A stretch of 64,000 nt of DNA. It comes from Thermoanaerobaculia bacterium. Lineage in GTDB: Bacteria; Acidobacteriota; Thermoanaerobaculia; Multivoradales; SZUA-115. A program made the position numbers and the translations under genes. This document shows, in pieces, positions 35,719-64,000 of the stretch. Position 1 is the stretch's first letter; each line of letters opens with the position of its first letter. The notes under the pieces were generated by a model. That model was not told where the DNA came from. It did no database searches and was given only the letters and a program-made list of their open reading frames with translations. The stretch is taken from the NCBI GenBank assembly GCA_036274895.1, contig DASUEU010000057.1, forward strand, positions 5,807 through 69,806, given 5' to 3'.

Positions 35719-38592
35719 CTACGGCAGCGGCTCGCCGTCGGCCGGTAGGCGCAGGGCGTAGATGCCTCTGCCGAAGGTGAAGGCGGTGAGCGTGGTGCCG
35801 TAGGCCTCCTTGCCTTCCGGGCCGCGATCGATCGTCAGGTAGCGGATGATCGTGTTGGGCAGGCCGTGCTGATAGCGCACCCAGGTCGGCGTCGTGGCGT
35901 CGATGTTGTTGGTGTAGTAGAAGCCGAACGAAGTCCCCACGAAGACCTGCTTTCGGTTGTACGGGTTCACCGCAACGGACCACGCCGGCACGTCCGGCAG
36001 ATTGCCCGTTTTGTTCTTCCGAATCCAGCTCGAGCCATTCCACCGGAACTCGAAAAGGTGGCCGGGTGTGGTCGGCGTGTTGTCGTCGAAGCCGCCCACG
36101 GCGGCGTAGAGCCGCTGGTGGTTGGTGGGATCGAACGCTGTGCCCAGGACGGCGCGGTTGGGCAGCACCTCGTTGGCGGAGTCCACGTCCCGCCACAGGG
36201 CACTGGTGTTCGGGGTGCAAGTGAACGTCGGCTTGTTGGCGTGCTTCTCCGTGCAGGTCGAGCCGGTGAAGGCGTTGTTCGTCCACCACAGCTTGCCGTC
36301 GTTGGTGCCCGCCGCCGCCCCCTTGGGCCGGCTGGGGGCGAAGGCCAGGCTGACGATCGAGGCACTGCCGCCGCCCTTGGTCAGGAGCGGGGAGATCACC
36401 GTCCAGCTCGGGCTGGTGGCGCTGTAGGAACCCGAGGCGTGGACGTAGTCCTCACCGAAGAGCAGGTTCGCGCAGCGCTCGTGAGTGCAGTGCCACGGGT
36501 TCAAGACCAGCGGCGCGACGAGGTCCGCCGAGCCCAGCTGCTCAGGGTTGCAGCTGTCCGTGAAGGGGCCGTCGGCGCCGCTGTCCGCCGAGCAGAACAG
36601 CCAACCGAAGGAGAACTCGGAGAACCACCAGCCGGCCGTCTCGCTGCCGGCGACGGGGTCGAACGCCGAGTGATAGCCGTCGCCGCCGATGCCGCGGCCG
36701 GTCGCCGTCAGATCCGCGGTGGTCGAGTCCCAGCTCGCCGTGCCGTTGTCCTGCATGCCGCCGAACAGCCATTGCACGCCATCCATCCCCGAGCCTGCGA
36801 AGTCGGCACCGGCCTGGCCGCCGTAGAAGAGCAGGGTGTTGAAACTATCGTTGAGCTGGCGCCAGGCGTTGGCGTCGCCGGCCTTGTCGTTCCAGTAAAC
36901 GCCGCCGTCATTGCCCATCAGGAACGTCGAGCCCTCGGTGCCCGGCACGAAGGCCATGGCGTGGAAATCCGGGTGGATCTTGCCGTACTCGGGGCAGAGG
37001 GGCTCGTAGGTCGCGGAGAGGTTGGTGAGCGTAATCGCGGAGTAGTCCGCGCTCACCTCGCCCTTGAACACGTCGATGTGCCCGAGGTAGAGGGTGCGGT
37101 CGTTCTCCGGGTCCACGGCCACGAACAGGTCGAAGAAATCCTGATAGGTGTAGCTGATCGTGGCGTTGCAGTTGAGGTGATCCTCCTCGCCGCTGCCGGC
37201 GAGGCGCGTCCAGGTCGTCGAGCCGCCATCCGGCCGCAGCACGTAGGTGCCCTCGGCACTGCCGGTCTCCAGGCTGTGGACCTGGGCGTAGAGGGTGAGG
37301 TGATCGTCCTTGCCGATGCCCCCGGCCAGCTCGATGCGGCCGGTCCAGCTGCCGTCCTCCCAGTAGGGGACGCCGTTGCCCGTGCCGGCGGGAAGGCCGG
37401 CGGAGAGGAGGGTGAAGTCCCCGGGCCAGGTCGGGCAGCCGGCGGCCGGCACGTTGAAGCGGTAGATGCCGTTGTTGCCGTTGGCGTCACCGCCGGTGTG
37501 CCCCACGGCCACGTAGGCCACGGTGGGCGTGGCGCGGGCATCGAGATAGATCGCGCTGACGCGGTTGATCGATTGCAGGGGCCCGCCGGAAACCGAGGGG
37601 TTGGTGTAATCGTTGCCGAAAGCGCAGATCTGCCAGGTATTGCCGGCGTCGTTCGAAAGGTAGAGATCGTTGCGCGTGCCGACCAGCACGGTCGAGGGCT
37701 GGTGGGGATCGACCTCGATGTCCTTGACCGCCTGGTTGTCCCAGCGGTTGCCGCCGGCCGGCAACGTCGGGGAGAACGGCGTGAACACGCTCGCCCCGAG
37801 CTGGGTCCAGGTGGCACCGGCGTCGGTCGACTTCATGATGCCGGCGCTGAATTGGGCGCGGCCCACGGCGTCCCCGGTGCCGACGTAGAGGATGCTCGAG
37901 TTGTTGGGATCCAGCTCCACGGCCCCGGCGGCCTGGCTGACGAAGTCCTTGTCGTCCCACAGCGGCGTCCAGACCTCGCTGCCCGAGCCCAGGTTGGTGG
38001 TCTTCCACAGGCCACTCGCGGCGAAGGCGGCGTAAGCGACGTTGGGGGAGCTCGGGTTCACGGCCAGGCCGTTGGCCGCCACGCGGCCCGAGACGCGGCC
38101 CCACTGGTAGGCGTCGTTGGTGGTGCCCACGCTGTCCACCGGCTGCGGGCCGTAGGAGACCCAGGTGTTCGTGCCTGGGGGAATGACACCTTCGCGGGCG
38201 AGGCGGGCGGCATTGGCCGGGGCTCCCGCCCAGGCCGGAGCGTCCGTAACGTGGCGGGCCACCCAGTCGCGAGCGCGATCCCAGGCCATCGGCGGGATCC
38301 GGCCGGTGGGGTAGGTGAGCAGGTGCCACTCCACCGCATCGGCGGTGTCGATCCGGTCGCCGTTGCCCAGGCGGAAGCCGGAGGGAAGGGCGCGAAGGTA
38401 GGCCTCCGAGCCGCGCTTCTGATGCTCCTTGCGGGCCTGGCGAGCCTGCGCGGGGTCGCCGGATGCCGCCCCTTGGTGAGCAGCGGGCGGCAGCATCCAG
38501 ACGGCCGCCGCCAGGGCGCCGAGGAACACCAGGGCAGGAATGCCGGCACGAGCTACGAGCCGTGGCCAGCGAGCTGATTGCGTCCTACTCAT
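35719..38592 (-). CDS. secreted BNR/Asp-box repeat protein (sialidase/GH74/Ycf48-like beta-propeller), 957 aa
   Basis: Start MSRTQSARWPRLVARAGIPALVFLGALAAAVW with AAGGAA RBS; the upstream track extension is rejected. Several Asp-box repeats (STDAGATW, SNDAGNTW). Confidence 0.75.
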   Translation of the reverse strand: MSRTQSARWPRLVARAGIPALVFLGALAAAVWMLPPAAHQGAASGDPAQARQARKEHQKRGSEAYLRALPSGFRLGNGDRIDTADAVEWHLLTYPTGRIPPMAWDRARDWVARHVTDAPAWAGAPANAARLAREGVIPPGTNTWVSYGPQPVDSVGTTNDAYQWGRVSGRVAANGLAVNPSSPNVAYAAFAASGLWKTTNLGSGSEVWTPLWDDKDFVSQAAGAVELDPNNSSILYVGTGDAVGRAQFSAGIMKSTDAGATWTQLGASVFTPFSPTLPAGGNRWDNQAVKDIEVDPHQPSTVLVGTRNDLYLSNDAGNTWQICAFGNDYTNPSVSGGPLQSINRVSAIYLDARATPTVAYVAVGHTGGDANGNNGIYRFNVPAAGCPTWPGDFTLLSAGLPAGTGNGVPYWEDGSWTGRIELAGGIGKDDHLTLYAQVHSLETGSAEGTYVLRPDGGSTTWTRLAGSGEEDHLNCNATISYTYQDFFDLFVAVDPENDRTLYLGHIDVFKGEVSADYSAITLTNLSATYEPLCPEYGKIHPDFHAMAFVPGTEGSTFLMGNDGGVYWNDKAGDANAWRQLNDSFNTLLFYGGQAGADFAGSGMDGVQWLFGGMQDNGTASWDSTTADLTATGRGIGGDGYHSAFDPVAGSETAGWWFSEFSFGWLFCSADSGADGPFTDSCNPEQLGSADLVAPLVLNPWHCTHERCANLLFGEDYVHASGSYSATSPSWTVISPLLTKGGGSASIVSLAFAPSRPKGAAAGTNDGKLWWTNNAFTGSTCTEKHANKPTFTCTPNTSALWRDVDSANEVLPNRAVLGTAFDPTNHQRLYAAVGGFDDNTPTTPGHLFEFRWNGSSWIRKNKTGNLPDVPAWSVAVNPYNRKQVFVGTSFGFYYTNNIDATTPTWVRYQHGLPNTIIRYLTIDRGPEGKEAYGTTLTAFTFGRGIYALRLPADGEPLP

Positions 38593-38784
38593 TCGGCTGA
38601 TTCCTTTGGACCGGACGGCGGGCCAGTTCCCGTCGTCCAAGGCGAGGCGAAGTAGAATCACCAGAGAGTTTGTGAACACACCAAAAGATACCATGTGAAG
38701 CCAGTGCAGGGCATCTCGATTCGATGGCTGCGCGACCGTTGAGGCGGCACCCGCCCGCGGCGAGCCCGGCGCCGGCGTTCTCGG

Positions 38785-38802
38785 CTGCTCAAGACTGAGC
38801 AG
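38785..38802. promoter_or_regulatory. palindromic operator CTGCTCA-agac-TGAGCAG (copy 1 of 3)
   Basis: 135 nt upstream of the first ABM-like gene. Shares the identical 16-mer TGCTCAAGACTGAGCA with the site at 46639-46658. Same half-sites as the perfect palindrome at 51027-51050. Confidence 0.6.
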
Positions 38803-38936
38803 ATCCCCCCCGCTCGGGACGGTAGAGTCACCGCCAGCTCCGAAGCCGTTCGCCATCCCGAGCCGCGCACCCCTGGAATGCGGGTGCCGATACGGGTCTC
38901 TCTCTGCTTCGGGCGTTGCGGAGGTCCGTTTCAGCG

Positions 38937-39791
38937 ATGGTGCCCACAGCAGCCGCACAGACCACCCAGGAACCGGACCAGCTCCTGCATTCGGCGAGCT
39001 CCGGGCTGATCATCCACCGCACGGCACAGCTCAAGAACGAGTTCCGCTCGGGGGGGCGCGAGTTCGCCCGTGAGGTGGCCGAGCACGTCAACCGGACCCA
39101 GACCGGCAGGGCGACCCTCTTCGTCTACGAGGAAGCCTTCGGGGTGCACGACCGCATCCACTGGCTGATCCACCTCGGCGGCCTCACCGACTACCTGACC
39201 CTGATCACCATGTCGGTCAACGACGAGGGCTTCCGCAACATCTTCTTCCGCGAGCGCATCGCCCCTGAGAAGGGCGGTGGCGATTGGTCGCGGATGTTCC
39301 CGGATGGCTCACTGTCGGAGCGGGTGTTGATCCCGCTGCGGCGACCGGGGGCCAACGGGACGGACGGCGCCGCCTTCCCGCTACCGGCTGGCCGGCAAAC
39401 GACGCTGCCCGCCGAGCAGATCCTGCATTCGGCCAACGCCGGGATGCTGGTCGAGCGGGTCGGCATCGCCCGCTACGAGGCCCGCGACCAGGCCCGCGAG
39501 CTGGCCCTCGAGGTGGCGGAGCGGGTCAACCTCGGTCTGCCGGGAGTGGCCTCGATGTTCGTCTACGAGGAGATGTTCGGCCGCCAGGACTGCCTGCACT
39601 GGCTGATCCACCTGCGCGCCCTCGACGCCTACACCGCCTTCTTGGCCTTCGTCCAGGAGGACGCCGGCCTGGCCGAGATCCTGCGCCGTTCGGGCCCCGG
39701 GGGCGGTTGGAGCTGGTTCCTCGACGGCAGCCTCGAAGAGACGGTGCTGGTGCCGCAGTTCGCCGGCAGCTCGGGCACCGTCAAGCGCTGA
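38937..39791 (+). CDS. tandem-duplicated ABM/Dabb-like (dimeric alpha+beta barrel) domain protein
   Basis: Two internal ~125-aa repeats sharing LHSA..G...R...ARE.A.EVAE.VN...FVYEE.FG..D..HWLIHL...DGSL.E.VL.P. The FVYEE..G....HWL segment resembles the antibiotic-biosynthesis-monooxygenase fold. GGAGG RBS. Family assignment is tentative. Confidence 0.55.
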   Translation: MVPTAAAQTTQEPDQLLHSASSGLIIHRTAQLKNEFRSGGREFAREVAEHVNRTQTGRATLFVYEEAFGVHDRIHWLIHLGGLTDYLTLITMSVNDEGFRNIFFRERIAPEKGGGDWSRMFPDGSLSERVLIPLRRPGANGTDGAAFPLPAGRQTTLPAEQILHSANAGMLVERVGIARYEARDQARELALEVAERVNLGLPGVASMFVYEEMFGRQDCLHWLIHLRALDAYTAFLAFVQEDAGLAEILRRSGPGGGWSWFLDGSLEETVLVPQFAGSSGTVKR

Positions 39792-39821
39792 ACACGTCCA
39801 CCGTGAGCCCCGGGAGCCGTG

Positions 39822-40706
39822 ATGAACCCTGCCCAACCCTCAACCGCCGGCGCCGCGCCGGTGATCCCCCCGGCCTTCCATCAAGCCGCCCAGCCCGTGG
39901 AGGCCCTGCTCAACTCGGCCAGCTGCGGACTGATCATCCAGCGCACCGGCCAGATCAAGGGCAAGTACCGCTCCGAGGGCCGCCAGTTCGCCCGCGAGCT
40001 GGCCGAGCACATCAACGAGAGGCAGCTCGGACGGGCCACGGTGTTCGTGTACGAGGAGACCTTCGGCGTCAAGGAGCGACTCCACTGGCTGATCCATCTG
40101 CGCTCGCTGCGCGACTATCCCACCATGGTGGCGATGGGCGCGGCCGACGAGAAGTTCCGCGAGCTGATCCTCCGCGAGCGGCTGCCGGGGGGAGGGCGGT
40201 GGGACGAGATCTTCCTGGACGGCTCCCTGCGCGAGACCGTGCTGGTGCCCCAGCGCTGGCTCTCCCCCGGCCGCGACGGCGCGCCCTCCGGCACGGCCCT
40301 CGACCAGCTCGGGCCCGGCGAGACGACGTTCCTCCACTCCGCCACCGCCAGCTCGATCGTGCAGGTCTCCGGCATCCTGCGCCACGAGCACCGGCGCAGC
40401 GGCCGGGAGGTCGGCCGCCGCCTGGCGGAGCGCCTCAACCGCGAGCAGGCCGGCGCCATCACGGCCCTGGTGTACGACGAGGCCTTCGGCGCGGGCGAGC
40501 GGGTCCACTGGCTCCTCCACCTCTCGGCCCTGAGCGACCACGCCGAGCTGGCGCCCTACCTCGGGCCGGAGCCGGTGGCCGAGGGCAGCGGTGCCGGCCC
40601 GGCGGCGGAGCCGTCCTGGCGCGAGCTGTTCGTCGAGGGCTCCCTTTCCGAGGTCGCGTTGACCCCTCAATTCTGGGGCCTGTACGCTACGAAAAAGCCA
40701 TCGTGA
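39822..40706 (+). CDS. paralogue of the preceding tandem ABM/Dabb-like protein
   Basis: Same two-repeat architecture (…GRATVFVYEETFGVKERLHWLIHL… and …ITALVYDEAFGAGERVHWLLHL…), giving four domain copies across two adjacent genes. Confidence 0.55.
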   Translation: MNPAQPSTAGAAPVIPPAFHQAAQPVEALLNSASCGLIIQRTGQIKGKYRSEGRQFARELAEHINERQLGRATVFVYEETFGVKERLHWLIHLRSLRDYPTMVAMGAADEKFRELILRERLPGGGRWDEIFLDGSLRETVLVPQRWLSPGRDGAPSGTALDQLGPGETTFLHSATASSIVQVSGILRHEHRRSGREVGRRLAERLNREQAGAITALVYDEAFGAGERVHWLLHLSALSDHAELAPYLGPEPVAEGSGAGPAAEPSWRELFVEGSLSEVALTPQFWGLYATKKPS

Positions 40707-40732: not shown

Positions 40733-41200
40733 ATGACCGAAGCGCTGGTGGAGGCCTGGCTGGTCAACAACCGAGTCAACCTGATGATTCTCCGCGAGCT
40801 GGGGGACGAGGCCCTGGCCGCCAGCCTCTCCTCGCGGGGCGGGCGCACCGTGGGCGAGCAACTGGCCCACGTGCTCGAGGTGCGGCGGGCCAAGGTGGAG
40901 GCGGCGGACAAGGCCCTCGCCGCGACCATCCCCACGGTCGGCCGCGAGCAGGGCCACGACCGGGAAGCCCTGCTCGCCGGCTTCGAGAAGAGCGGCGAGG
41001 CGGTGGCCGAGCTGATCCGCAAGAGCGCAGGCGAGGGCGGGCAGGTCAAGGGCTTCCGCCGCGGCATCGTGGTCCTGATCGCCTACCTGATCGCTCACGA
41101 CGCCCACCACCGGGGACATCTGTTCCTGACCCTCAAGCAGTCCAAAGTCGGGATCCCGGCCTCGCTCCGCATGGAGATCTGGGCCTGGAACCAGATCTGA
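40733..41200 (+). CDS. DinB/YfiT-like (DinB_2) metal-dependent protein
   Basis: Motifs GEQLAHVLEV and IAHDAHHRGH (His-triad). ~155 aa. CAGGAGGGGATC-ATG start. Confidence 0.7.
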   Translation: MTEALVEAWLVNNRVNLMILRELGDEALAASLSSRGGRTVGEQLAHVLEVRRAKVEAADKALAATIPTVGREQGHDREALLAGFEKSGEAVAELIRKSAGEGGQVKGFRRGIVVLIAYLIAHDAHHRGHLFLTLKQSKVGIPASLRMEIWAWNQI

Positions 41201-41203
41201 GCC

Positions 41204-42619
41204 ATGGCTCCGGCGCTCCTCGACGACACGTCGTCCGCGAAGCCGCGGGAGCGCCCTGCGAGCGCGGCCGCCGGCCGGGCCCGGCCGCCCGGGCCCCGCG
41301 GGTTGCCCCTGCTGGGCTGCCTGCCGGCCTTCCGCCGGGATCCCCTCGCCTTTCTGCAACGCACCGCACGCGAGCACGGAGACGTCGCCTTCTTCCGCCT
41401 CGGCACCCAGAACGTTTTCCTCTTGAACGACCCCGAGCTGATCCGCGAGGTGCTGGTGCAGCGACAGGGCCTGTTCACCAAGAGCCGGGGCCTGCGCCGC
41501 GCCCGCGCCCTCCTCGGAGACGGCCTGCTGACCAGCGAGGGCGAGGTGCACCACCGCCACCGCCGCCTGGTGCAGCCGGCCTTCCACCCGGACCGCCTCC
41601 AGGGCTATGCCGAGGTGATGGTCGACGCCGCCCTCGAGACGGGCCGGCGCTGGCGGGCCGGCGAGTCGGTCGAGGTCTTCTCCGAGATGGCGCGCATCAC
41701 CCTGGGGGTGGTCGGCACCACCTTGTTCAGCGTCGAGGTGGAGGAGGAGGCCCAGGAGATCGGCACCGCCCTGACCAGCGTGCTCGAGATGTTCAGCATC
41801 ATGATGCTGCCCTTCTCGGGCCTGGTCGAGCGCCTGCCCTTGCCGGTGGTGCGGCGTTTCCACGCTGCCCGCAGCCTCCTCGATGGGCGTATGGAGCGCT
41901 TGATCCACGAGCGCCGGGAGAGCGGCAGGGACTCCGGCGACCTGTTGTCGATGCTGCTCCTGGCCCAGGACGAGGCGGGGGGTGGGCTGTCGGACCGCGA
42001 GGTGCGCGAGGAGGCCTTGACCCTCTTCCTGGCCGGCCACGAGACCACCGCCAACGCCCTCTCCTGGACCCTCTACCTGCTGGCGTCGAACCCCGACTGC
42101 GAGGCACGGCTGCACCGGGAGCTCGAGGAGGTGTTGGGCGGGCGCCGGCCGACCTTCGCCGACCTGCCCCGCCTGTCCTGGGCCGAGCACGTGCTGGCCG
42201 AGGCCATCCGCCTCTACCCGCCGGCCTGGGCGATCGGGCGCTCGGCCAGGGAAGCCCTCGAGCTGGGCGGCTTCGAGGTGCCGGCGGGCAGCACCGTGAT
42301 CCTGAGCGCCTACGTCACCCAGAACGACCCCCGCTACTTCCCCCATCCCGAGGTCTTCGATCCCGAGCGCTGGCAGCCAGGGCCGAGGGCGGAGCGGCCG
42401 AAGTTCGTCTACTTCCCCTTCGGTGGCGGTGCCCGGACCTGCATCGGCGAGCGCTTCGCGATGATGGAGGGCGTGCTGATCCTGGCCACGCTGGCCCAGC
42501 GCTGGCGGCTGCGGCTGGCGCCGGGCCAGACCGTCGAGCCGATGCCGCTGATCAACACACTGCGGGCTCGGGGTGGCTTGCCGCTCCGGCTCGAAGCACG
42601 CGGCGCGCCAGCTCCCTGA
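41204..42619 (+). CDS. cytochrome P450
   Basis: AGHETT I-helix, ExxR, heme loop FGGGARTCIG. Ends with GLPLRL as in many P450s. Confidence 0.9.
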   Translation: MAPALLDDTSSAKPRERPASAAAGRARPPGPRGLPLLGCLPAFRRDPLAFLQRTAREHGDVAFFRLGTQNVFLLNDPELIREVLVQRQGLFTKSRGLRRARALLGDGLLTSEGEVHHRHRRLVQPAFHPDRLQGYAEVMVDAALETGRRWRAGESVEVFSEMARITLGVVGTTLFSVEVEEEAQEIGTALTSVLEMFSIMMLPFSGLVERLPLPVVRRFHAARSLLDGRMERLIHERRESGRDSGDLLSMLLLAQDEAGGGLSDREVREEALTLFLAGHETTANALSWTLYLLASNPDCEARLHRELEEVLGGRRPTFADLPRLSWAEHVLAEAIRLYPPAWAIGRSAREALELGGFEVPAGSTVILSAYVTQNDPRYFPHPEVFDPERWQPGPRAERPKFVYFPFGGGARTCIGERFAMMEGVLILATLAQRWRLRLAPGQTVEPMPLINTLRARGGLPLRLEARGAPAP

Positions 42620-43757
42620 CGTTGGCCTCGGCGCGGAACACCGAGAGGTGGTCGCCGTGCGGCTCGACGTAGAGGGTCGCGTCGGCCAGACGGGCCGCCA
42701 CCCGGCGCGAGCCTTCGGGGTGGGCGGTGCCGTCGTCCTGGCTGGTGATCACCGCCACCGGCTGTCGCACGCGCGGCAGCAGCGCCTCGACCTCGAAGCT
42801 CATGATGCTGCCGTTCAAGAGCCCGTAACGATGGGTCAGCTCGGCATTGGCCCAGGGGTAGAGGACGTGGGCGGCGGGCTGGGGCAGGGGCTTGCCGGCC
42901 AGGGCGTGGCACATCGCCCCCCGCACCGCGGCGGCGCTCTCCCGGCTCTCGGCGGCCATCGCCAGCAGCGACCCGAGGTCGTGCTGGTGATCGGTCTTCG
43001 GGCCGCCGGCACCGAGCTCGTAGTCGCCGTGCCAGAGGCTCAAGGAGTGGACCCTCGCCGGCCAGGCCGCCGCCGCGGCGAGGGCCAGGACCGCCCCACC
43101 GCACATCCCGAGGGCATGGGCCGAGGCCACGCCGAAGCGATCCATCACCGCCACCAGGTCGGCCGCCTGGGCCGAGACGTCCCGCCCCCGGCGGTCGAAG
43201 GCGGCGTCCGCGAGGAAGAGGCCCCGGCTCTCCCAGGTGAGGACGTAGGCGTCACGGGCAAGGAAGTGTAGCCAGGCCAGCGACAGCCCCACCGGCATGC
43301 CGCAGGGGGGCACCAGCACCACGGCCGGCCGGCTGCGCTCGCCCAGGGCATAGGCCCGAAGCGGCGTACCGTCGAAGGAGCTCAGGTGCACGGGCTCCGG
43401 GCGCCCTTCGCCGGGGTCGGCGAGCGCGCGCCGGGTGCTCCGCTCGAAGGCCTCGACGCTGGGCCAGGCAGGCCGGGCCTCGTCGAGGCTCGCCAGGGCG
43501 CTCTCCAGGCCCTCGCTCAGCACCCGGGCGAAAAGCCTGGCCCCGGGATCGGCGGGCGTCTCGCCCAGCGTGAGCCGGGGGGCCGGAAGGCCCCGGCAGA
43601 CCGCGTCGAGGCACGCCTGGAGCGGGGCGGCCTCCCCGCCCTGGGCCAGGGCGAGGGGCAGGTGGAGGGGCCGGGGCAGGGCATCGATCAGCGGCCGCAG
43701 GGCCAGCACCGAGCGGGCCAGGAGCAGGGCGAGGTCCACGCCCGGGGCGAGGGCCAT
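42552..43757 (-). CDS. alpha/beta-fold hydrolase/acyltransferase with Cys nucleophile (G-M-C-G-G elbow)
   Basis: Nucleophile elbow HALGMCGGAVLA, acid near SQDDG, His in EPHGDHLS. 3' end overlaps the convergent P450 by 68 nt. First Met lies 10 nt after the PhyH-family gene stop. Confidence 0.7.
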   Translation of the reverse strand: MALAPGVDLALLLARSVLALRPLIDALPRPLHLPLALAQGGEAAPLQACLDAVCRGLPAPRLTLGETPADPGARLFARVLSEGLESALASLDEARPAWPSVEAFERSTRRALADPGEGRPEPVHLSSFDGTPLRAYALGERSRPAVVLVPPCGMPVGLSLAWLHFLARDAYVLTWESRGLFLADAAFDRRGRDVSAQAADLVAVMDRFGVASAHALGMCGGAVLALAAAAAWPARVHSLSLWHGDYELGAGGPKTDHQHDLGSLLAMAAESRESAAAVRGAMCHALAGKPLPQPAAHVLYPWANAELTHRYGLLNGSIMSFEVEALLPRVRQPVAVITSQDDGTAHPEGSRRVAARLADATLYVEPHGDHLSVFRAEANVRELARRVLRAGAASHPEPAVC

Positions 43758-43767
43758 CGGCGTCCCC

Positions 43768-44718
43768 CTAGCGGTTCGGGAACGGGTAGCCGCGGGTGGT
43801 GGCGGTGGCGATGCGGTTGTAGCGGTAGCGATCCTCGCCCGCCACCACCACGGCGCCGTAGCGGTCCAGCCGCACCGTGCCGCCGTACTCCTCGATGGCC
43901 TCGCTGTCCGGGTAGACGTGGACCCGGGTGGGCACGTAGCGCGCCGCGAAGCCCATGCGCATCTCCTGGGTCTTGCCGCGGTGGGGATGGGAGGCGTGCA
44001 TCAGGGTCGACCAGAAGAGGATGGCCTGGCCCGGCCGCATCACCATCGACACCGCATGATCCTCGTCCGGCTTCCAGTCGGGATCGATCTGCAGCTCGCG
44101 GTAGTCGTAGCCGAAGAAGCCGCGCCGGATGCCGTCCTTCTCGACCTGGTTGATCGACTCCGGGCGGTAGTGCATCTCCTTCTGCTCGTCGTAGAACATG
44201 GTGTGGTGGGTGCCGGGGATGAACTGCAGGCAGGCAGTGTCTTCGTTGGCCTCGGTGAAGGCCGTCCACACCGTGATGGTGCCGCCGAAGTCCTCGTGAC
44301 CGTCCGGCCAGACGATCTGCGGCTGGCCCGAGGCGTTGGCGAAGGTGTCCGCCTGATGCCAGTCGGTGCCCTCGTCGCCGGGGTACTTGGGGAAGAACTC
44401 GGTGCGCCAGCACAGCACGTCCGGCCCCAGGATGCTGACCACGCGGTCGACGATCTCCGGACGGCAGATGTGGTCGGCGAAGAACTGGCAGTCGAGGTGG
44501 CGGTCGTAGTTGCCGATGTTGGTCGCCCCCGACTGGGCGACGCTCTCCTGGTAGACGGCAGCGGAGCGGTCCATCAGCTGCAAGCGCTGGCGCCGCCAAT
44601 GGGCCTTCATCTCCTCGACCTCGTAGACCGTGAACGGCCCGAGGTAGCCGTTGCGATGAAAGGCGGCGAGCTCCGCCGGGCTAAGAGAGAACTTCGGCTG
44701 CGTCAGGGTGTCCAGCAT
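43768..44718 (-). CDS. PhyH-family Fe(II)/2-oxoglutarate-dependent oxygenase, HQAD variant of the facial-triad motif (possible halogenase-like)
   Basis: PhyH-like core with WHQADTF where hydroxylases have WHQD (H-x-D). The A at +2 matches the H-x-A pattern of SyrB2/CmaB-type halogenases. A distal His is in [10 protein letters not shown]. The start may be a later Met, since the ORF overlaps the A-PCP gene by 38 nt. Confidence 0.7.
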
Positions 44719-46552
44719 GGGGAGTCTCCGAGAAGAGGGGTGGGGCGGTGGCGAGCTGGGCCTCGACGCAGGCGGCCAGGCGGGCCACCGTGGCCTGGTC
44801 GCCCAGCTCGCTGCCGTTCAAGGACACGCCGAAGGCGTCGTTGGTCAGGCGCAGCAGGCGCACGAAGGCCATCGAGGTCGCGCCGTGGTCGAAGAGGTCG
44901 TCGTGCGGGGAGAGGCCCGGCAGCCGCAGCACCTCTGCGGCCAGGCCTAGCAGGGTGCGCTCGGTGCTGCCGATCGGCCCGCCGGGGGCGGAGGGTGGCG
45001 CGGTCCCGGCCAACGCCGCGAGGGCCCGGCGGTCCACCTTGCCGTGGGCGGTCAGGGGGATCGCCCCCACCACGTGGACCTCCGCCGGCACTTGGTGGGC
45101 CGGCAGCTCGCGGGCCGCCCGCGTGCGCAGCTCCTGGCTCAAGCGGGCGGCGCCGCCGTCGAGCCCAGAGCCGGGCCGGGGCACGACGGCGGCGAGCAGC
45201 CGCACGTCGCCGCCGCCGAGGTCGAGGCTCGTCACCACCGCTCTCGCCACCTCGGGATGGGCCGCCAGGCAGGCTTCGACCTCGGAAGGCTCGATGCGGA
45301 AGCCCCGCACCTTGAGCTGGTCGTCGAGCCGGCCCAAGGTGCGCAGCTCACCGTCGGCGCCGCGCACGGCGCGGTCCCCGGAGCGGTAGGCGCGAGCCCC
45401 CGAGGCGCCGGTGCCGGCTGCGGGCAGGAACCGCTCGGCGGTCAGGCCCGGGCGGCCGAGATAGCCGCGGGCGAGGCCCGGGCCGGTGACGTGGAGCTCG
45501 CCGGGTGTGCCGGCGCTCACCGCGAAGCCCCGGGGGTCGAGCAGCGAGACCCCGAGGTCGCCGAGAGGCTGGCCGATCGGGCTCGCCGCGTCGCCGTCGA
45601 GGTCCTCGCGGAGGATCCTCCGCCAGGTGACGTGCACGGTGGTCTCGGTGATGCCGTAGAGGTTGGCCACCTGGGGCCGCTGGTCGCCCCAGCGCTCGAA
45701 CCACGGGGCGAGCAGGCGAGGGTCGAGGGCCTCGCCGCCGAAGACCAGGGCCCGCAGCCGCGGGGCGAAGGGGGTCTCGGCGTGGAGCTCGGCGTCGAGC
45801 AGGCCGTGGAAGGCCGACGGTGTCTGGCTCAGGATCGTCACCCCGTTCTCGGCCAGGAGGTGGCAGAGGCGCCCGGGCTGGCGGGCCACCTCGAGGGGCA
45901 CGATCACCAGCCGGCCGCCGTAGAGCAGGGCTCCCCAGATCTCCCAGACCGAGAAGTCGAAGCTCGCCGAGTGGCAGAGGGACCAGACGTCCTCCGGGCC
46001 GAAGTGGAGGTGTCGGTCCGCCTGCTCGAACAGGCGCACCACGTTGCGGTGGGAAACCATCACCCCCTTGGGCTCGCCGGTCGAACCCGAGGTGTAGATC
46101 ACGTAGGCCAGGTTGTCGTCCGCCGGCCTGCCTGCCCCCGCGGCCGCCGGCGGAGCCGGGCCCGGGGCGTCGTCGGCCGTCAGGACTTCGACGCCCAGGG
46201 CGGCGAAGCGTGGGCCGAGGTCGGCGGTCGTGACCACCCGGCGCACCCGCGAGTCCGCCAGCAGGTAGCGCAGGCGGGCCTCCGGGTAGGCGGGATCGAG
46301 GGGCAGGTAGGCACCGCCCGCCTTGAGGATGGCGAGCAGGCCGACGATGAGCTCGAAGCCCCGCTCGGCGGCCAGGCCGACGAGCACCTCGGGCCCGACC
46401 CCGGCGTCCCGCAGGCGTGCCGCCAGCCCTTCGGCCCGGTCGTCGAGCTCCCGGTAGGTGAGGTCTCGGTGGCCGAACGAGAGGGCGACGCGGCGGGGGA
46501 ACTCCTCCGCCCGCCGTTCGAAGATCTGGTGAAGACACTGACCGGATGCCAT
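44681..46552 (-). CDS. free-standing NRPS adenylation-PCP didomain (loading A-T)
   Basis: A-domain cores [52 protein letters not shown] and [21 protein letters not shown]. Confidence 0.85.
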
Positions 46553-46638: not shown

Positions 46639-46658
46639 TCTGCTCAAGACTGAGCAAG
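46639..46658. promoter_or_regulatory. palindromic operator TCTGCTCA-agac-TGAGCAAG (copy 2 of 3)
   Basis: In the 91-bp gap upstream of the A-PCP gene. Overlaps the AT-ER stop codon (tca at 46644-46646). Confidence 0.6.
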
Positions 46659-48950
46659 CCGTGGGGGATCCGAGCGCCCGAGCAGACCCTCGAGCCGCCG
46701 GCCGAGCACTGTGGCGGCGCCCCGCATCAGGTGCTCGGCAATGCGCTCGACGTGGCGCTCCCGCCAGGGCTCGAGGGGGGTGCCGCGCACCGAGCGGTTG
46801 AAGGCGCCCATCGCCGGCCCGCAGTGGATCTGATAGTTCACCCGCTCCGGCGAGCCGGCGAGGGCCCAGCGGCTGGTGTGGGCGAAGTACCAGTTGAAGA
46901 CCAGGGCCATCTTGTGGCGGGGGTCCCGCTCGGCCTGCTCGATCTGCTCCGGTCGGGTGCTCGCCAGGTGGTCGCAAGTCTCGCTCCAGACCTGGGCGAG
47001 CGAGCGCTTGAAGTAGCGCTCCTCGAGCGTCTTCCGGGTCCCTTGGTCGAGCTCGTCGAGCGATCGATGCTGGCGGTAGAGCTGGAAGAGCTTGTTGGCG
47101 CGGGCTGCGAAGAGGGTGCCGCGGCTCGCCACCTGCACGCGGGCCCCCAGCTCGAACATGTCACCGGCGGCGGTGTAGGCGGTGTCCTGCACGTCGAGCT
47201 GGGCGAGCAGGTCCTTGACCGCCTCGGAGGTGCCGGCCTCGGGGGAGCACTGGTTGACCGAGCCGGTCAGCACGAAGTCCGCCCCCAGCACGAACGCCGC
47301 CGCCGCGGCCTCGGGGGAGCCGATGCCGCCGGCGGCACCCAGGGGGACGTCGGCCGGGCAGGCCCCCCGCTCCCGCATCTCCTCGCGCAGCTGGAGCATG
47401 GCCGGCATCAGGGCGTAGGCGCGCCCGGCGTCGGTGTGGCCGCCCGAGTCGGCCTCCACGCACAGCTCGCTCGCCACCGGCAGGCAGCGCGCCACCGCCG
47501 CTTCCTCGGCCCCGAGGCCGCCGCTGGCCACCAGTTGGGCCAGCACTTCTTCGGGCGGGGGGCGCAGGAAGAGGGTGGCGATCTCGGGCCGTGACACCTT
47601 GGCCAGCACCCGGCGCCCGGCCACCGGCTCACCGGCGGCCGTGAAGCGGGCGCCGCGGAAGCGGCAGCGCACCAGCGGCGCGGTGATGCGCAGGTAGGCG
47701 GCGGCCTCGACGAAGCGCACGTCGTGGGCGAGCAGCAGCTCGACGGTCGCCGCCTCGAGCTCCGGCTCGTCGAGGGGGTAGAGCAGGTTGGCGCCCCAGC
47801 TCGCCCGGGGCCCCAGCTCGCGCTTCAGCTCCTGGAGCGCCGCCTCGATCGCCGCCAGGCCGAGGCCGCCGGTGCCGAAGAAGCCCATCAGCCCGTTTCT
47901 CGCCAGGCGGATCAGCAGCCGGGTCGAGGCGATGCCCTGGTACATCGAGCCGGCGAGGTAGGCGTAGCGCAACCCATAGTCGCGCCGGAAGCTCGCCGAG
48001 CCCAGCCGCTCGGCGGCGAGGCACGGGTCGGGCGGCGGTTCCACCTCCGGGGCGGCCACGGCGACGGGCCGAGGTGCCAGGCGGGGCGGCGAGGGCGGTG
48101 CCGGGAAGGCCGAGCGCCAGAGCTTGGTGAGCACCCCTCCGGGGCCGAGCTCCTCGACCTCCTCGACCCCCTGCTCCTGCAGGTAGCGCATCGCCTCCCA
48201 CCAGCGCACCGGCGAGCGGATCTGCGCGCTCAGCAGGGCCGGGAGCTGGTCGGCCCGGTAGGGCCTGGCGGTGACGTTGGCGATCACCGGCAGGGTGGGA
48301 GGGGCGAAGCGAGCACGCCCCAGCACCTCCTCGAAGGCGTGCGAGGCTTCGACCATGGAGCGCGAGTGGAAGGCGGCGGCAACCGCCAGGGGCAGGGTTC
48401 GCACCGTCCGCCCCTCCGGTGCCGCTGCCACCAGCCGGGGCGCCAGGCGGCTGAGCGCCTCCCCCGGCCCCGCGAGCACGATCTGGTCGGGGGCGTTGTA
48501 GTTGGCGACGTCGACCGAGTCGATGCCGCTCGCCGCCAGCGCCTCGGTGAGTCGCTCGGCAGTGAGGCCGATCACCGCCATCATGGCGCCGCCGCTCGCC
48601 GCGGCCATCAGCTCGGAGCGGGCCGTCACCAGAAGCAGGCCGGTCTCGAGATCGAAGCAGCCGGCGGCGAAAAGGGCGTTGAGCTCGCCCAGGCTGTGGC
48701 CGGCCAGGAAGTCCGGCCGCTCGCCGTTCGCCCGGCGTTCGAGGTAGCTGAGGGCGTTGACCAGGAAGAGGGCCGGCTGGGCCCAGCGGGTGGAACGCAG
48801 GCGATCCCCGGGGTCTTCGAGGCAGAGCTCCCTGAGGGAGGTGCCGGCGATGCGGTCGGCCAGCGCGCACTCCTCCGGGAAGCGCTCGAAGAGCCCCGCT
48901 CCCATGCCGCGGCGCTGTGAGCCCTGGCCGGGGAAGAGGAAGGCCCTCAC
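46644..48950 (-). CDS. trans-acting acyltransferase fused to trans-enoylreductase (AT-ER didomain, PksE/LnmG-like)
   Basis: AT motifs FLFPGQGSQ and GHSLGE. C-terminal PfaD/nitronate-monooxygenase-like ER. Preferred start is the GTG overlapping the ECH stop (GTGA). An alternative ATG at 48981-48983 would overlap ECH by 37 nt. Confidence 0.85.
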   Translation of the reverse strand: MRAFLFPGQGSQRRGMGAGLFERFPEECALADRIAGTSLRELCLEDPGDRLRSTRWAQPALFLVNALSYLERRANGERPDFLAGHSLGELNALFAAGCFDLETGLLLVTARSELMAAASGGAMMAVIGLTAERLTEALAASGIDSVDVANYNAPDQIVLAGPGEALSRLAPRLVAAAPEGRTVRTLPLAVAAAFHSRSMVEASHAFEEVLGRARFAPPTLPVIANVTARPYRADQLPALLSAQIRSPVRWWEAMRYLQEQGVEEVEELGPGGVLTKLWRSAFPAPPSPPRLAPRPVAVAAPEVEPPPDPCLAAERLGSASFRRDYGLRYAYLAGSMYQGIASTRLLIRLARNGLMGFFGTGGLGLAAIEAALQELKRELGPRASWGANLLYPLDEPELEAATVELLLAHDVRFVEAAAYLRITAPLVRCRFRGARFTAAGEPVAGRRVLAKVSRPEIATLFLRPPPEEVLAQLVASGGLGAEEAAVARCLPVASELCVEADSGGHTDAGRAYALMPAMLQLREEMRERGACPADVPLGAAGGIGSPEAAAAAFVLGADFVLTGSVNQCSPEAGTSEAVKDLLAQLDVQDTAYTAAGDMFELGARVQVASRGTLFAARANKLFQLYRQHRSLDELDQGTRKTLEERYFKRSLAQVWSETCDHLASTRPEQIEQAERDPRHKMALVFNWYFAHTSRWALAGSPERVNYQIHCGPAMGAFNRSVRGTPLEPWRERHVERIAEHLMRGAATVLGRRLEGLLGRSDPPRLAQS

Positions 48951-49729
48951 CGAGTCGGGTCCCCCGGGGGCGAGGTTTCCCACGGCAGCTTGCGCTCACG
49001 GACGAAGGCGGCGATGTTGCGCCGCACCAGCGGGGAGGCCATCAGCTCGGCCAGCTCGGCGAGGGCCGCCCGCTCGACCTCGGGCGAGAGAGACCACAGC
49101 GAGCAGAAGTGGCGCTTGGCCCGACCGAGGGTCGTGGGATCGATCTTCGACAGGCGGAAGGCCAGCCTGCGGATGGGCTCGTCGGGGTCTTCGGTCCGTT
49201 GGTCCACCAGGTGGATGCGCTCGGCCTCGGCGGCGCCGATCGGCAGGGTGGCGAGGGTCATGGCGTAGGCCTTCTGGAAGCCGACCCTGCGGATCAGGAA
49301 GGGCAGCACGCAGCAGGGCAGGAGGCCCCACAGCGCCTCGGGGAGGCTGAACTGGCTGCGCTCGGTGGCGAAGACGAAATCGCAGGCCACGGCCAGCCCG
49401 ACGCCGCCGCCGGCGGCGCGGCCGTCGACTTTGGCCACCACCACCCGGGGCAGCCGGGTCAGGCGCTCGAGCAGCGCCAGGAAGGCGGCACCACCGTCGC
49501 TGCCGCCGTCCTCGGCGGCCGCCTGCTCGAAGTCCATGCCGGTCGAGAACACGCCGTCCCGCCCCTCGAGCACCACCATCCGGCAGGCGGTCGTGGCCTC
49601 GGCCTGGTCCAGGGCCGCCTGGATCTCGCGCAGCAAGGCCGGGGTGAGGCCGTTGCCCTGGGCCGGCCGGTCCAGGGTCAGGGTGAGGACGGCGGGCGCG
49701 GTGGCGCGGACGAGCAGGCCCTCTGCCAC
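48947..49729 (-). CDS. enoyl-CoA hydratase/isomerase (crotonase) of a beta-branching cassette
   Basis: Crotonase oxyanion region VVAKVDGRAAGGGVGLAVACDFVFA...PEALWGLLP. Likely GTG start at 49727-49729, with GGAG 6 nt upstream, immediately after the HMGS stop. The long ORF-track N-terminal extension is junk. Confidence 0.75.
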   Translation of the reverse strand: MAEGLLVRATAPAVLTLTLDRPAQGNGLTPALLREIQAALDQAEATTACRMVVLEGRDGVFSTGMDFEQAAAEDGGSDGGAAFLALLERLTRLPRVVVAKVDGRAAGGGVGLAVACDFVFATERSQFSLPEALWGLLPCCVLPFLIRRVGFQKAYAMTLATLPIGAAEAERIHLVDQRTEDPDEPIRRLAFRLSKIDPTTLGRAKRHFCSLWSLSPEVERAALAELAELMASPLVRRNIAAFVRERKLPWETSPPGDPTR

Positions 49730-49731
49730 CT

Positions 49732-50964
49732 TCAGCTCCACTCGTAGAGGCGGTGGTACTCGTCGATGGCGCGCAGCACCAGCAGGCCCTGGCCGGCCAT
49801 GGTGCGGTCGTAGATCGCCTGGTAGGGAGCGGTGTCGACCGCGAGGGAGCGGGGGGCGCCACGGCTCTGCGCCGAGAGCTCGGCGATGGTCTCGTACTCC
49901 TCCATGTCGAGCTCGTAGCGCTCCGCGACCCGCTCCGCAAGGCCCAGGGCGGCGAGCGCCGCCGGGGCCCCGGGAGAGATGACGCCGCTGTAGAACTCGG
50001 CGGCACAGCCCGAGCCGTAGGAGAACAGGCCGATGCGCTTCGGCGCCTCGAAGCTCGCCCCCTCGATCAGCGAGCAAAGGGCGAGGTAGAGCGCCGCCGA
50101 GTAGATGTTGCCGATGCGCATACAGTAGGAGAGCGAAGGCGCGACGCGGGCCGCGAAGTCGCGCTCGATCGCCTCCGGGCCGAGGCCCCCGAGCTTGCGC
50201 AGCAGCATGCGATGGGCGCCCTTGACCATGCCGGCGAAGGGAGTGTGGAAGGCGAGGTAGTCGAAGGTGGTCCGCACGTCCGCGCCCCGCACCCGTTCCT
50301 GGTAGGCGAGCACGCATTGCTCCAGGCAGTGCAGGTAGGAGAGCAGGGAGAGGTCCGAGTCCCCGGCCTCGAGGTCGGGGGAGGGGCGGCAGGTGTCCAT
50401 CACCTCGTAGCTGTAGCAGCCGCTGGCGCCGGCATCGACCTCCAGGACCTCGGCCCTCTCGCCCACCAGCATGGCGACGGCGCCCGCGCCCTGCGAGGGT
50501 TCCCAGTAGGTGGAGCGGGCCACCCGGCTGGCGGTGTCGGTGGCCACCACCAGGGCTTTGACCCCGGACCGGCCACTCCGGGCCAGCAGGCCGAGCGCGG
50601 TCTGCAGGGCCGCGGTGCCGCCGTAGCAGGCATGCTTGACCTCGAAGGAGCGGCAGCGGCGGCTGAGGCCGAGATGGTGATGGACGTAGGTGCTGAGCGG
50701 CTTGCCCTGATCGAGGCCGGACTCGGTGCCGACGATCAGCAGTTCGATCGCAGCGAGCTCACCGGCCGAGAGGTTGCGCAGCAGCGGCCGGGCAGCGTTT
50801 ACGGCGTTGGTGACCGGGTCCTCGCAGGGCAGATTGACCGACTTCTCGACCATCATCAGGTTCGAGAAACGCTTGAGGTCCAGCGTTCGCGCGGCGAATA
50901 GCCGCTCGACACCCAGGCGCAGCCTGCCCGGATAAACGTTGATGGCTTCGATGCCGGTGGTCAT
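49732..50964 (-). CDS. HMG-CoA synthase-like (PksG/HCS family) beta-branching enzyme
   Basis: HMGS fold with active-site region SFEVKHACYGGTAAL plus His/Asn residues. 410 aa. Confidence 0.9.
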   Translation of the reverse strand: MTTGIEAINVYPGRLRLGVERLFAARTLDLKRFSNLMMVEKSVNLPCEDPVTNAVNAARPLLRNLSAGELAAIELLIVGTESGLDQGKPLSTYVHHHLGLSRRCRSFEVKHACYGGTAALQTALGLLARSGRSGVKALVVATDTASRVARSTYWEPSQGAGAVAMLVGERAEVLEVDAGASGCYSYEVMDTCRPSPDLEAGDSDLSLLSYLHCLEQCVLAYQERVRGADVRTTFDYLAFHTPFAGMVKGAHRMLLRKLGGLGPEAIERDFAARVAPSLSYCMRIGNIYSAALYLALCSLIEGASFEAPKRIGLFSYGSGCAAEFYSGVISPGAPAALAALGLAERVAERYELDMEEYETIAELSAQSRGAPRSLAVDTAPYQAIYDRTMAGQGLLVLRAIDEYHRLYEWS

Positions 50965-51290: not shown

Positions 51291-51968
51291 ATGTCGCGTT
51301 CCGTGGCAGGTCCTGTTTCCCTGGGCGACTCGGTCAGCGCCTTGATCCGTCGGGGAGTGTTGCGCGCCTCGACGCTCAAGCTGGCCAAGCACGCGACGAT
51401 CTACAGCAGCGGTGATCCAGGCACCAGCATGTACGTGGTCGAAGAGGGTTGGGTGAAGATCGTCACCCACTCGCGGGCGGGCAAGGACTGCCTGCTGGCC
51501 ATCCGCACCAACGGCGACCTCTTCGGTGAGCAGGCCCTGCTCGGCGAGGTCCGCGAGGAGACGGCGACCGCCATGTCGCCGACCACCCTCAAGCGGGTGA
51601 GCCGCGACTCCTTCATCGGCAGCGTGGCCCAGGAGGAGCTGCTCGAGGCCTTGCTGCGCTATTCGCTCACCCGCCTCTCCGAGCAGCAAGACATCATCAC
51701 CGACTTCGTCACCGCCGACAGCGAGCAGCGGCTGGCCTCGACGCTGCTGCGTCTGGGCAGGAAGCTCGGCCGCCGGGCACCGAGCCAGATCCGCATCGAA
51801 GAGCGCATCTCCCAGGAGGACCTGTCACGAATCGTCGGCACCACCCGTTCCCGTGTGGGTTTCTTTCTCAAGCGGTTCGAGGCCCTGGGACTGATCGAGA
51901 CGAGCAAGAACTGCTTCCTGGCCATCAACGAGCAGCGCCTGTGTGAGTTCGTGGAGCGGGAGGCCTGA
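51291..51968 (+). CDS. Crp/Fnr-family transcriptional regulator (cNMP-binding domain plus C-terminal HTH)
   Basis: GGAAGGAGA RBS. cNMP-binding beta-roll. C-terminal HTH EERISQEDLSRIVGTTRSRVGFFLKRFEALGLIE. Confidence 0.85.
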   Translation: MSRSVAGPVSLGDSVSALIRRGVLRASTLKLAKHATIYSSGDPGTSMYVVEEGWVKIVTHSRAGKDCLLAIRTNGDLFGEQALLGEVREETATAMSPTTLKRVSRDSFIGSVAQEELLEALLRYSLTRLSEQQDIITDFVTADSEQRLASTLLRLGRKLGRRAPSQIRIEERISQEDLSRIVGTTRSRVGFFLKRFEALGLIETSKNCFLAINEQRLCEFVEREA

Positions 51969-51969
51969 G

Positions 51970-64000
<12,031 letters not shown>

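Follow-up and report, generated by a model that had tools for sequence, protein, structure and literature searches.

Leinamycin-type compounds are potent DNA-alkylating antitumour agents. Their nascent assembly-line product bears an unstable C-3 hydropersulfide, whose onward conversion to the warhead has no assignment in the literature (PMC8479088, PMC13200230), and as of 2026 the enzyme that forms the 1,2-dithiolan-3-one ring is described as one that 'has yet to be identified' (PMC13200230). The largimycin cluster of Streptomyces argillaceus has the gene order lrgT2-lrgE-lrgM2-lrgF-lrgG ... lrgS-lrgH-lrgY-lrgI (PMC9396626), in which lrgE was named by its authors as the homologue of LnmE of the leinamycin pathway. 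We analysed a stretch of 64,000 nucleotides (hereafter the window; contig DASUEU010000057.1, positions 5,807 to 69,806, assembly GCA_036274895.1) from a metagenome-assembled genome (MAG) of the Thermoanaerobaculia (Acidobacteriota). At the left edge of a largimycin-like (leinamycin-type) cluster, this window carries two adjacent paralogous genes, here called A and B, whose products match the Pfam family DUF6039. We are highly confident of the identity, fold and cluster membership of this pair, and we consider it a credible candidate for the unsolved step of leinamycin-family biosynthesis.

Two tandem-repeat proteins of the DUF6039 family

Gene A (38937-39791, + strand) encodes 284 residues from an ATG start that is preceded, at a distance of 12 nt, by an RBS-like motif (ribosome-binding site) read from the sequence (GGAGG, 38920-38924, + strand). 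Gene B (39819-40706, + strand) comprises 295 residues if started at the GTG at 39819 and 294 if started at the ATG at 39822; the latter, located behind GGGAG at 39812-39816, is the likelier start. In a window with a G+C content of about 70%, both genes have coding-type third-position values (GC3 0.89-0.93) according to a frame-specific GC3 screen and the list of open reading frames (ORFs). A sequence-only reading of this DNA had described the two as adjacent paralogues, each with an internal tandem duplication and thus four copies in total, and this description holds. Aligned end to end, the products of the two same-strand ORFs share 45% identity (BLASTP, E 9e-76), and the halves of each protein align with one another at 44% identity in A (E 4e-33) and 37% in B (E 7e-27), so that each protein is a tandem duplication of a unit of about 140 residues, far above chance level. 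In A, the first repeat spans residues 1-142 (38937-39362, + strand; barrel core 24-133) and the second residues 143-284 (39363-39791, + strand; barrel core 170-273); in B the repeats lie at 39819-40268 and 40269-40706 (+ strand), the second with a degenerate second helix region and low model confidence at about residues 250-260. Alignment of all four halves yields 31 invariant columns and recovers the repeat pattern that had been quoted before, including S-A of LHSA, A-E..N, VYE-FG, HWL-HL and GSL-E..L-P. A recent duplication of A and B was considered and rejected: with 45% identity between them and 41-47% to homologues of other phyla, the two are no nearer to each other than to proteins of distant hosts and are thus old paralogues rather than products of a recent local duplication.

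The proteins had initially been left outside any named family, an assignment that is superseded by strong matches to Pfam PF19505 (DUF6039; model of about 298 positions, gathering cut-off 25 bits), with 306.6 bits and E 2.1e-91 for A and 259.7 bits and E 4e-77 for B (model positions 5-296). Isolated halves match the same model, each with E about 1e-52, and the product of gene A is 100% identical to a 'DUF6039 family protein' of a Thermoanaerobaculia MAG. By profile match, A and B are thus both members of DUF6039. Searched against 1.84 billion cluster representatives, a profile built from the four half-domains retrieved just 80 of them at E<=1e-3, showing that DUF6039 is a small, isolated family, known but functionally uncharacterised. 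An NCBIfam search of A and B returned a chance-level match only.

The resemblance to ABM (antibiotic biosynthesis monooxygenase) or Dabb proteins proposed in the sequence-only reading stands at the level of the superfamily, as the ferredoxin-like halves of the structural models described below demonstrate, but not at the level of the family. In Pfam searches neither A nor B matches ABM (PF03992), Dabb (PF07876), EthD (PF07110) or YciI (PF03795) at E<=10, and neither the halves nor remote relatives match Dabb, EthD or YciI at E<=1; a single one of 16 half-domain sequences matches ABM, with E 0.094. NIPSNAP (PF07978), on the other hand, is matched by 9 of these 16 sequences at E<=1. Two single-domain relatives, P0352 with 27.6 bits and P0369 with 30.5 bits, exceed the NIPSNAP cut-off of 22.3 bits and also match DUF6039. 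A, B and their halves have no NIPSNAP match above the cut-off, the first repeat of A matching DUF6039 only. Profile comparison thus indicates NIPSNAP as the nearest named sequence family to the DUF6039 repeat, bridged via single-domain relatives. These relatives look like the unduplicated form of the repeat: P0361, P0362, P0363 and P0369, of about 100 residues, display the HR-, N, YEE-FG, HW and GS-D motifs and match NIPSNAP as well as DUF6039, P0340, P0341, P0368 and P0374 are further examples, and some carry N-terminal hydrophobic, signal-peptide-like segments. A search of PDB sequences with the full-length profile gave nothing meaningful; a broadened half-domain profile gave a weak match to 1vqy, a hypothetical single-domain protein of 116 residues, that spans most of the repeat (E 0.83).

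AlphaFold2 models were computed from alignments of 65 and 84 sequences and reached a predicted local distance difference test score (pLDDT) of 92 and a predicted TM score (pTM) of 0.90 for A, and 89 and 0.88 for B. According to DSSP, both models consist of two consecutive beta-alpha-beta-beta-alpha-beta units, each with an additional short N-terminal helix and an extra helix preceding the last strand; the prediction of ferredoxin-like halves is thereby borne out, and with the repeats 37-44% identical a different fold between them is implausible. Having two repeats per chain, a single DUF6039 chain imitates the homodimeric alpha+beta barrel expected of its single-domain relatives. For both models, Foldseek searches against the PDB returned only single-chain tandem alpha+beta barrels, among them 2pgc, 3mcs, 3f44, 5f9p, PenE (9kdp), chlorite dismutase, HemQ/ChdC and sulfur oxygenase reductase (E 2e-9 to 1e-4, query-normalised TM about 0.45-0.56, 6-14% identity). 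On the evidence of these models, the fold class, that of the dimeric alpha+beta barrel superfamily, is secure, and no single enzyme family stands out.

Conservation was surveyed over 123 family sequences with both repeats compared. Common to both repeats are R28/R174, N52/N198, Y64/Y210, E65-E66/E211-E212 and G69/G215, as well as H75/H221, H79/H225, Y86/Y232, W117/W258, F121/F261 and P133/P273, so that a polar constellation of R, N, Y-E-E, H-x3-H, Y and W is kept in both halves of both paralogues. With the strand assignment of the AlphaFold2 models, E66, H75, Y64 and H79 alternate onto a single face of the beta2-beta3 hairpin. The polar residues would thus line one ligand pocket per repeat, enclosed by the sheet and the helices in the manner of ABM-type enzymes. 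A metal site of the H-x3-H kind as in sulfur oxygenase reductase was considered and rejected, as both histidines are placed on a beta strand and would be about 13 A apart rather than separated by one helical turn.

Association of DUF6039 with leinamycin-type clusters

A total of 73 DUF6039 loci were fetched with 10-kb flanks from Actinomycetota, Burkholderia, Pseudomonas, Pseudoduganella, Myxococcota and MAGs. A homologue of the HMG-CoA synthase (HMGS), the acyltransferase/enoyl reductase (AT/ER), the stand-alone adenylation-peptidyl carrier protein didomain (A-PCP) or the polyketide synthase (PKS) of such clusters lies within 10 kb in 70 of them, the three exceptions being short contigs or loci. 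Counted by marker, A-PCP occurs at 55 loci, HMGS at 47, AT/ER at 42, the PhyH-family gene at 38, the hydrolase at 34 and the Crp-type regulator at 28, and the Pfam-annotated neighbourhoods agree with the association. DUF6039, with its 80 representatives, is therefore essentially confined to leinamycin-type clusters, and it belongs to a small number of genes that accompany them at nearly every locus examined and yet have no assigned role.

The connection to LrgE and LnmE was made through gene order and primers. At L003, a Streptomyces locus, the genes run transporter, DUF6039, HMGS, enoyl-CoA hydratase (ECH), AT/ER, DUF6039, A-PCP, PhyH, hydrolase, PKS, which matches the largimycin cluster. The primers 'ermEorf29LnmE up' and 'ermEorf30HMG up' of the largimycin supplement (PMC9396626) have exact matches in L036 (Streptomyces nogalater): one at 4339-4356, a short distance upstream of the DUF6039 gene located before HMGS, and the other at 5200-5217, within the 3' end of that same gene. 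Exact primer placement together with matching gene order identifies lrgE as a DUF6039 gene. Over about 300 residues, A and B share 41-42% identity with the DUF6039 gene products of L036 and L003. No protein database entry or cluster listing that we searched is named LnmE, the entries reading 'DUF6039 family protein' or 'hypothetical', and a literature search on lnmE with leinamycin or S. atroolivaceus returned nothing, the supplement of PMC8479088 naming only a compound, 'LNM E'.

Pairing is a property of the family. Including the window, the stretches fetched hold two DUF6039 genes at 39 of 74 loci, three at 7 and one at 28, and in about a dozen loci the pairs are adjacent. The quadruplicated architecture, which had been described as uncommon, is consequently the family norm, with two or three genes at 46 of the 74 loci. 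All three-gene loci are actinobacterial (L024, L030, L047, L057, L063, L064 and L067) and combine one gene of the type found before HMGS with an adjacent pair before AT/ER. A neighbour-joining tree (no bootstrap) separates an E-type clade, with the gene before HMGS, from an H-type clade, with the gene between AT/ER and A-PCP, and places both A and B near the base of the two. Scored with clade-specific hidden Markov models, A obtains 296 bits as E-type and 323 as H-type, and B 234 and 286, where typical clade members differ by 77-123 bits. On these scores B leans towards the H-type clade. A appears as a deep-branching, weakly LnmE/LrgE-like (E-type) protein whose orthology is ambiguous because A and B branch near the base of both clades.

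The closest relative of the window is L074, with which it has the entire layout of A, B, DinB and cytochrome P450 genes in common and where the protein corresponding to A is 71% identical. Elsewhere, DUF6039 genes are found beside a stand-alone AMP-binding enzyme (about 45 loci), DUF3224 (32) and an FAD_binding_3 monooxygenase (20); this module occurs at proteobacterial and many actinobacterial loci, for example L001 (5823-10993) and L075 (10001-15655), whereas the surroundings of the pair in the window lack it.

A possible role at the sulfur warhead and its alternatives

Taken as a whole, the explanation that A and B are the conserved DUF6039 pair of leinamycin-family clusters and act after release on the sulfur warhead has, in our estimate, an even chance of being right; its functional half, a warhead-processing role for the pair, is proposed tentatively and is less likely than not. 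In this proposal A and B would work together, probably as a heteromer, and bind the nascent macrocycle after chain release at its C-3 hydropersulfide/beta-branch carboxylate end. They might capture or stabilise the hydropersulfide, or convert it towards the S-S warhead by ring closure of the 1,2-dithiolan-3-one type and/or by S-oxygenation; in the window, the product could then be handed to the co-transcribed DinB-type protein and P450. The timing is suggested by the delta-lnmE strain S. atroolivaceus SB3033, which reportedly (Huang et al., PNAS 2015) loses leinamycin and accumulates LNM E1, a full-length, beta-branched, thiol-bearing, sulfur-containing macrolactam. On this phenotype, LnmE would come in once the chain has been released but ahead of warhead formation and hydroxylation.

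Several observations weigh against such a role. The DUF6039 family has no conserved cysteine across the 123 sequences and no recognisable cofactor or nucleotide motif; to close a ring between a free carboxylate and a persulfide would require activation, for which these proteins offer no obvious means. The proposed pocket derives from strand alternation and not from coordinates. DUF6039 pairs also accompany largimycin-type clusters, and the products isolated from these contain no dithiolanone. At most actinobacterial loci the E-type gene overlaps HMGS; at about 35 loci an E-type gene stands immediately upstream of HMGS, often overlapping it, and an H-type gene directly after AT/ER; and a delta-lrgM2 mutant was complemented only when lrgE was co-expressed (PMC9396626). 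These observations could indicate a role on the assembly line. The leinamycin family is defined by a DUF-SH (thiocysteine lyase) didomain at the end of the cluster PKS, and the window itself stops earlier, inside the first PKS gene (63999). Lastly, we found no solved structure of, or experiment on, any DUF6039 protein, and a literature search for 'DUF6039' yielded no paper mentioning the name.

In its most specific form, the proposal makes the DUF6039 heteromer the warhead enzyme itself, which either closes the persulfide onto the carboxylate to give the 1,2-dithiolan-3-one or oxygenates the persulfide without a cofactor. We regard this version as unlikely, but if true it would give NIPSNAP-like alpha+beta barrels a catalytic activity that is new to them, and DUF6039 would then surpass the DUF-SH didomain as a beacon for the genome mining of such warheads, with a reach that extends to Acidobacteriota, Myxococcota and Proteobacteria.

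Not more probable than this, and yet the best of the competing explanations, is a non-catalytic one, in which the barrels bind the reactive, DNA-alkylating product, or the hydropersulfide from which it is made, and thereby sequester or chaperone it, to protect the producer or to pass the compound to an exporter. Such a function would have parallels among NIPSNAP-like proteins and other alpha+beta barrels that bind small molecules, and for NIPSNAP, the nearest sequence family, we know of no enzymatic activity. DUF6039 genes are also often found beside transporters: a Na/H-exchanger-type gene precedes the E-type gene in L003, OEP (outer-membrane efflux protein) and RND (resistance-nodulation-division) efflux genes directly follow the second copy in Burkholderia (L001), and a major facilitator superfamily (MFS) gene precedes the pair in L075. 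Furthermore, DUF6039 proteins (40-47% identity) diverge faster than do the core enzymes encoded alongside them (53-76%). In the window, however, no transporter gene adjoins the pair, and a polar set of E-E, two His, Arg, Asn and Tyr, conserved over four repeats and 123 sequences, is more suggestive of catalytic or ligand chemistry than of a greasy cavity for binding. Loss of lnmE, moreover, reportedly changes the product, LNM E1 in place of leinamycin, and not merely titre or viability.

Slightly less likely again would be a cofactor-independent oxygenase or cyclase of the ABM/anthrone-oxidase type, the idea of the sequence-only reading, that activates O2 on an electron-rich intermediate, for instance to oxygenate the persulfide or disulfide sulfur or the polyene. 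The structural neighbours include the 'putative monooxygenases' 3mcs and 3f44, the anthrone-oxidase-like 5f9p and the monooxygenase PenE, the marginal ABM match of one relative points the same way, and leinamycin needs an S-oxide for which the literature has not assigned the responsible enzyme (PMC8479088, PMC13200230). This structural similarity amounts to TM values of only about 0.5-0.56 at about 10% identity, and A and B have no profile match to ABM, Dabb or EthD at E<=10; since heme enzymes and sulfur oxygenase reductase are equally good matches, the functions cannot be told apart by fold. The clusters already contain P450s, and many an FAD monooxygenase, for oxidations, and DUF6039 is likewise present where the known product of the cluster has no S-oxide.

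A function as an assembly-line accessory, which would help the HMGS beta-branching cassette or the trans-acting AT on the carrier-bound chain, we consider improbable. The position of E-type and H-type genes at about 35 loci and the need for lrgE along with lrgM2 in the complementation of delta-lrgM2 would fit it, but the authors ascribe the lrgM2/lrgE result to translational coupling (PMC9396626), and the pair is detached from HMGS in the window and in L074, L048, L043 and L075. LNM E1, which the delta-lnmE mutant reportedly accumulates, is still a full-length, beta-branched, sulfur-containing macrolactam. A heme enzyme of the chlorite dismutase, coproheme decarboxylase or DyP type, finally, is very hard to sustain: both models have chlorite dismutase and HemQ/ChdC among their best structural matches and the UniRef entry of one family member is auto-named 'Chlorite dismutase', yet there is no match to Pfam Chlor_dismutase and about 10% sequence identity, the invariant histidines lie on strand beta3 of each repeat with no conserved helix His (every second repeat has R in place of H50 of helix 1), and DUF6039 is equally conserved in its two halves, whereas the proximal His of Cld/ChdC belongs to the C-terminal domain only.

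The present analysis contributes the duplicated NIPSNAP-like barrel with its conserved pairing and the near-confinement of the family to leinamycin-type clusters, from which follow a compact marker for genome mining and a short list of testable hypotheses.

The cluster in the window and its comparison with known systems

Genes A and B form a tight four-gene unit on the + strand with a DinB-family gene (40733-41200; Pfam DinB, E 1.2e-7) and a cytochrome P450 gene (41204-42619; Pfam p450, E 2.5e-91), with gaps of 27, 26 and 3 nt. This unit occupies the left cluster edge, and the proposal of the sequence-only reading that the pair heads the cluster operon is in this sense roughly right. A DinB gene between the pair and a P450 recurs only in L074 among the fetched loci (2095-2562, 77% identity). 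The remaining cluster genes are labelled after their largimycin or leinamycin counterparts (gene roles from PMC9396626). On the - strand follow an alpha/beta-hydrolase gene in the position of LrgY (42552-43757), a PhyH-family Fe/2-oxoglutarate halogenase-like gene in the position of LrgH (43768-44718; Pfam PhyH, H-Q-A motif), a stand-alone A-PCP loading didomain in the position of LrgS (44681-46552; 53% identical to the L003/L036 gene), an LnmG/LrgG-like trans-acting AT/ER (46644-48983; Pfam Acyl_transf_1, FabD_helical_ins and NMO), an LnmF/LrgF-like enoyl-CoA hydratase (ECH1) with an approximate start (48947-49741; tblastn 57% identity to the ECH of L003 over 48977-49699) and the LrgM2/LnmM-like HMGS of the beta-branching cassette (49732-50964). 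A Crp/FNR-family regulator (51291-51968) and an LnmI/LrgI-like hybrid of non-ribosomal peptide synthetase (NRPS) and AT-less PKS, cut by the window end (51925-63999), are encoded on the + strand; the hybrid comprises cyclisation/condensation (Cy/C), adenylation and nitroreductase-type oxidase (Ox) domains, PCPs, three ketosynthases and a ketoreductase. The cluster is thus largimycin-like, in a member of the Thermoanaerobaculia. Published genome mining for the leinamycin family drew on actinobacterial genomes; the host here is acidobacterial, and the presence of such a cluster outside Actinobacteria widens the range in which this chemistry may occur.

The PhyH protein is 76% identical to the product of the gene in the position of LrgH, a cryptic threonine halogenase, in Streptomyces (L003), and its H-Q-A corresponds to the HxA motif of halogenases; this conservation is far above that of the other cluster proteins (40-61%). 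The convergent 3' ends of the P450 and alpha/beta-hydrolase genes overlap by 68 nt (42552-42619), and by 56 nt in L074.

An operator had been placed directly upstream of the pair. A search of 38450-39000 revealed no inverted repeat, sigma-70-like promoter or terminator-like site, and the Crp-box pattern occurs at chance-level frequency and never near 38.5-39 kb, so that the operator finds no counterpart in this region. Alignment of the upstream region with that of L074 shows two short shared blocks, one CAAGACTGAGCAGA-like (38790-38804) and one TGGAAT/CG (about 38873-38880), both non-coding and neither palindromic. A sigma-54-like reading of the TGGAAT...GC block was rejected by eye, the GG-GC spacing being 9 nt instead of 10 in both the window and L074.

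The ORF immediately upstream of A (35719-38958, - strand) has a signal-peptide-like beginning, with a probable start near 38562, and no Pfam match; it lies probably outside the cluster, and the genes further upstream look unrelated to it. They include a gene for a protein of 2733 residues (370-8571, - strand) with GT2, glucoamylase-like and GH94 domains, which resembles cyclic beta-1,2-glucan synthase and is unrelated to the pair. About 15 kb off the cluster edge lie genes for an RND transporter of the AcrB type and for an outer-membrane efflux protein (18340-23721, - strand), which indicate a diderm host.

Among the known structures, the single-chain proteins with two ferredoxin-like domains provide one comparison. 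Chlorite dismutase, HemQ (ChdC), DyP and sulfur oxygenase reductase share this arrangement with DUF6039 (Foldseek E 5e-8 to 1e-4). The proximal heme His of Cld/ChdC is located on a helix; DUF6039 has its conserved His on a beta strand in both halves and no sequence-profile relationship to the heme enzymes. Sulfur oxygenase reductase possesses a conserved cysteine, which DUF6039 lacks. The ABM-type or tandem 'putative monooxygenase' barrels 2pgc, 3mcs, 3f44, 5f9p and PenE (9kdp), single-chain tandem ferredoxin-like barrels like DUF6039, are the best Foldseek matches (E 2e-9 to 1e-6), with a target-normalised TM of 0.70-0.75 for 2pgc, 3mcs and 3f44. Identity to these barrels is nevertheless about 6-12% and the query-normalised TM about 0.5-0.56, DUF6039 is about 70-80 residues longer, and A and B lack an ABM profile match. 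With NIPSNAP the repeat has in common a ferredoxin-like alpha+beta barrel domain of about 100 residues, to which DUF6039 adds an N-terminal P-A-x-x-Q-T/LHSA extension, an extra helix and a GGG-W loop, as well as its own YEE-FG...HWLIH motif.

The closest described systems remain the LrgE/LnmE-type proteins and their clusters, with the link to LnmE coming from the naming by the largimycin authors and from the primer mapping. A and B share with these proteins the DUF6039 membership, the two-repeat architecture and the conserved paralogue pair, and their cluster shares HMGS-ECH-AT/ER, the stand-alone A-PCP, the PhyH-type halogenase, the alpha/beta-hydrolase, Crp/FNR and the Cy-A-Ox NRPS/AT-less PKS. 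They differ in being only 40-47% identical to LrgE/LnmE-type proteins, in being adjacent and co-transcribed with DinB and P450 genes instead of flanking HMGS-ECH-AT/ER as in largimycin and leinamycin, and in residing in an acidobacterial MAG instead of an actinomycete. The pair is therefore a deep-branching member of a known, uncharacterised family and not a new kind of system.

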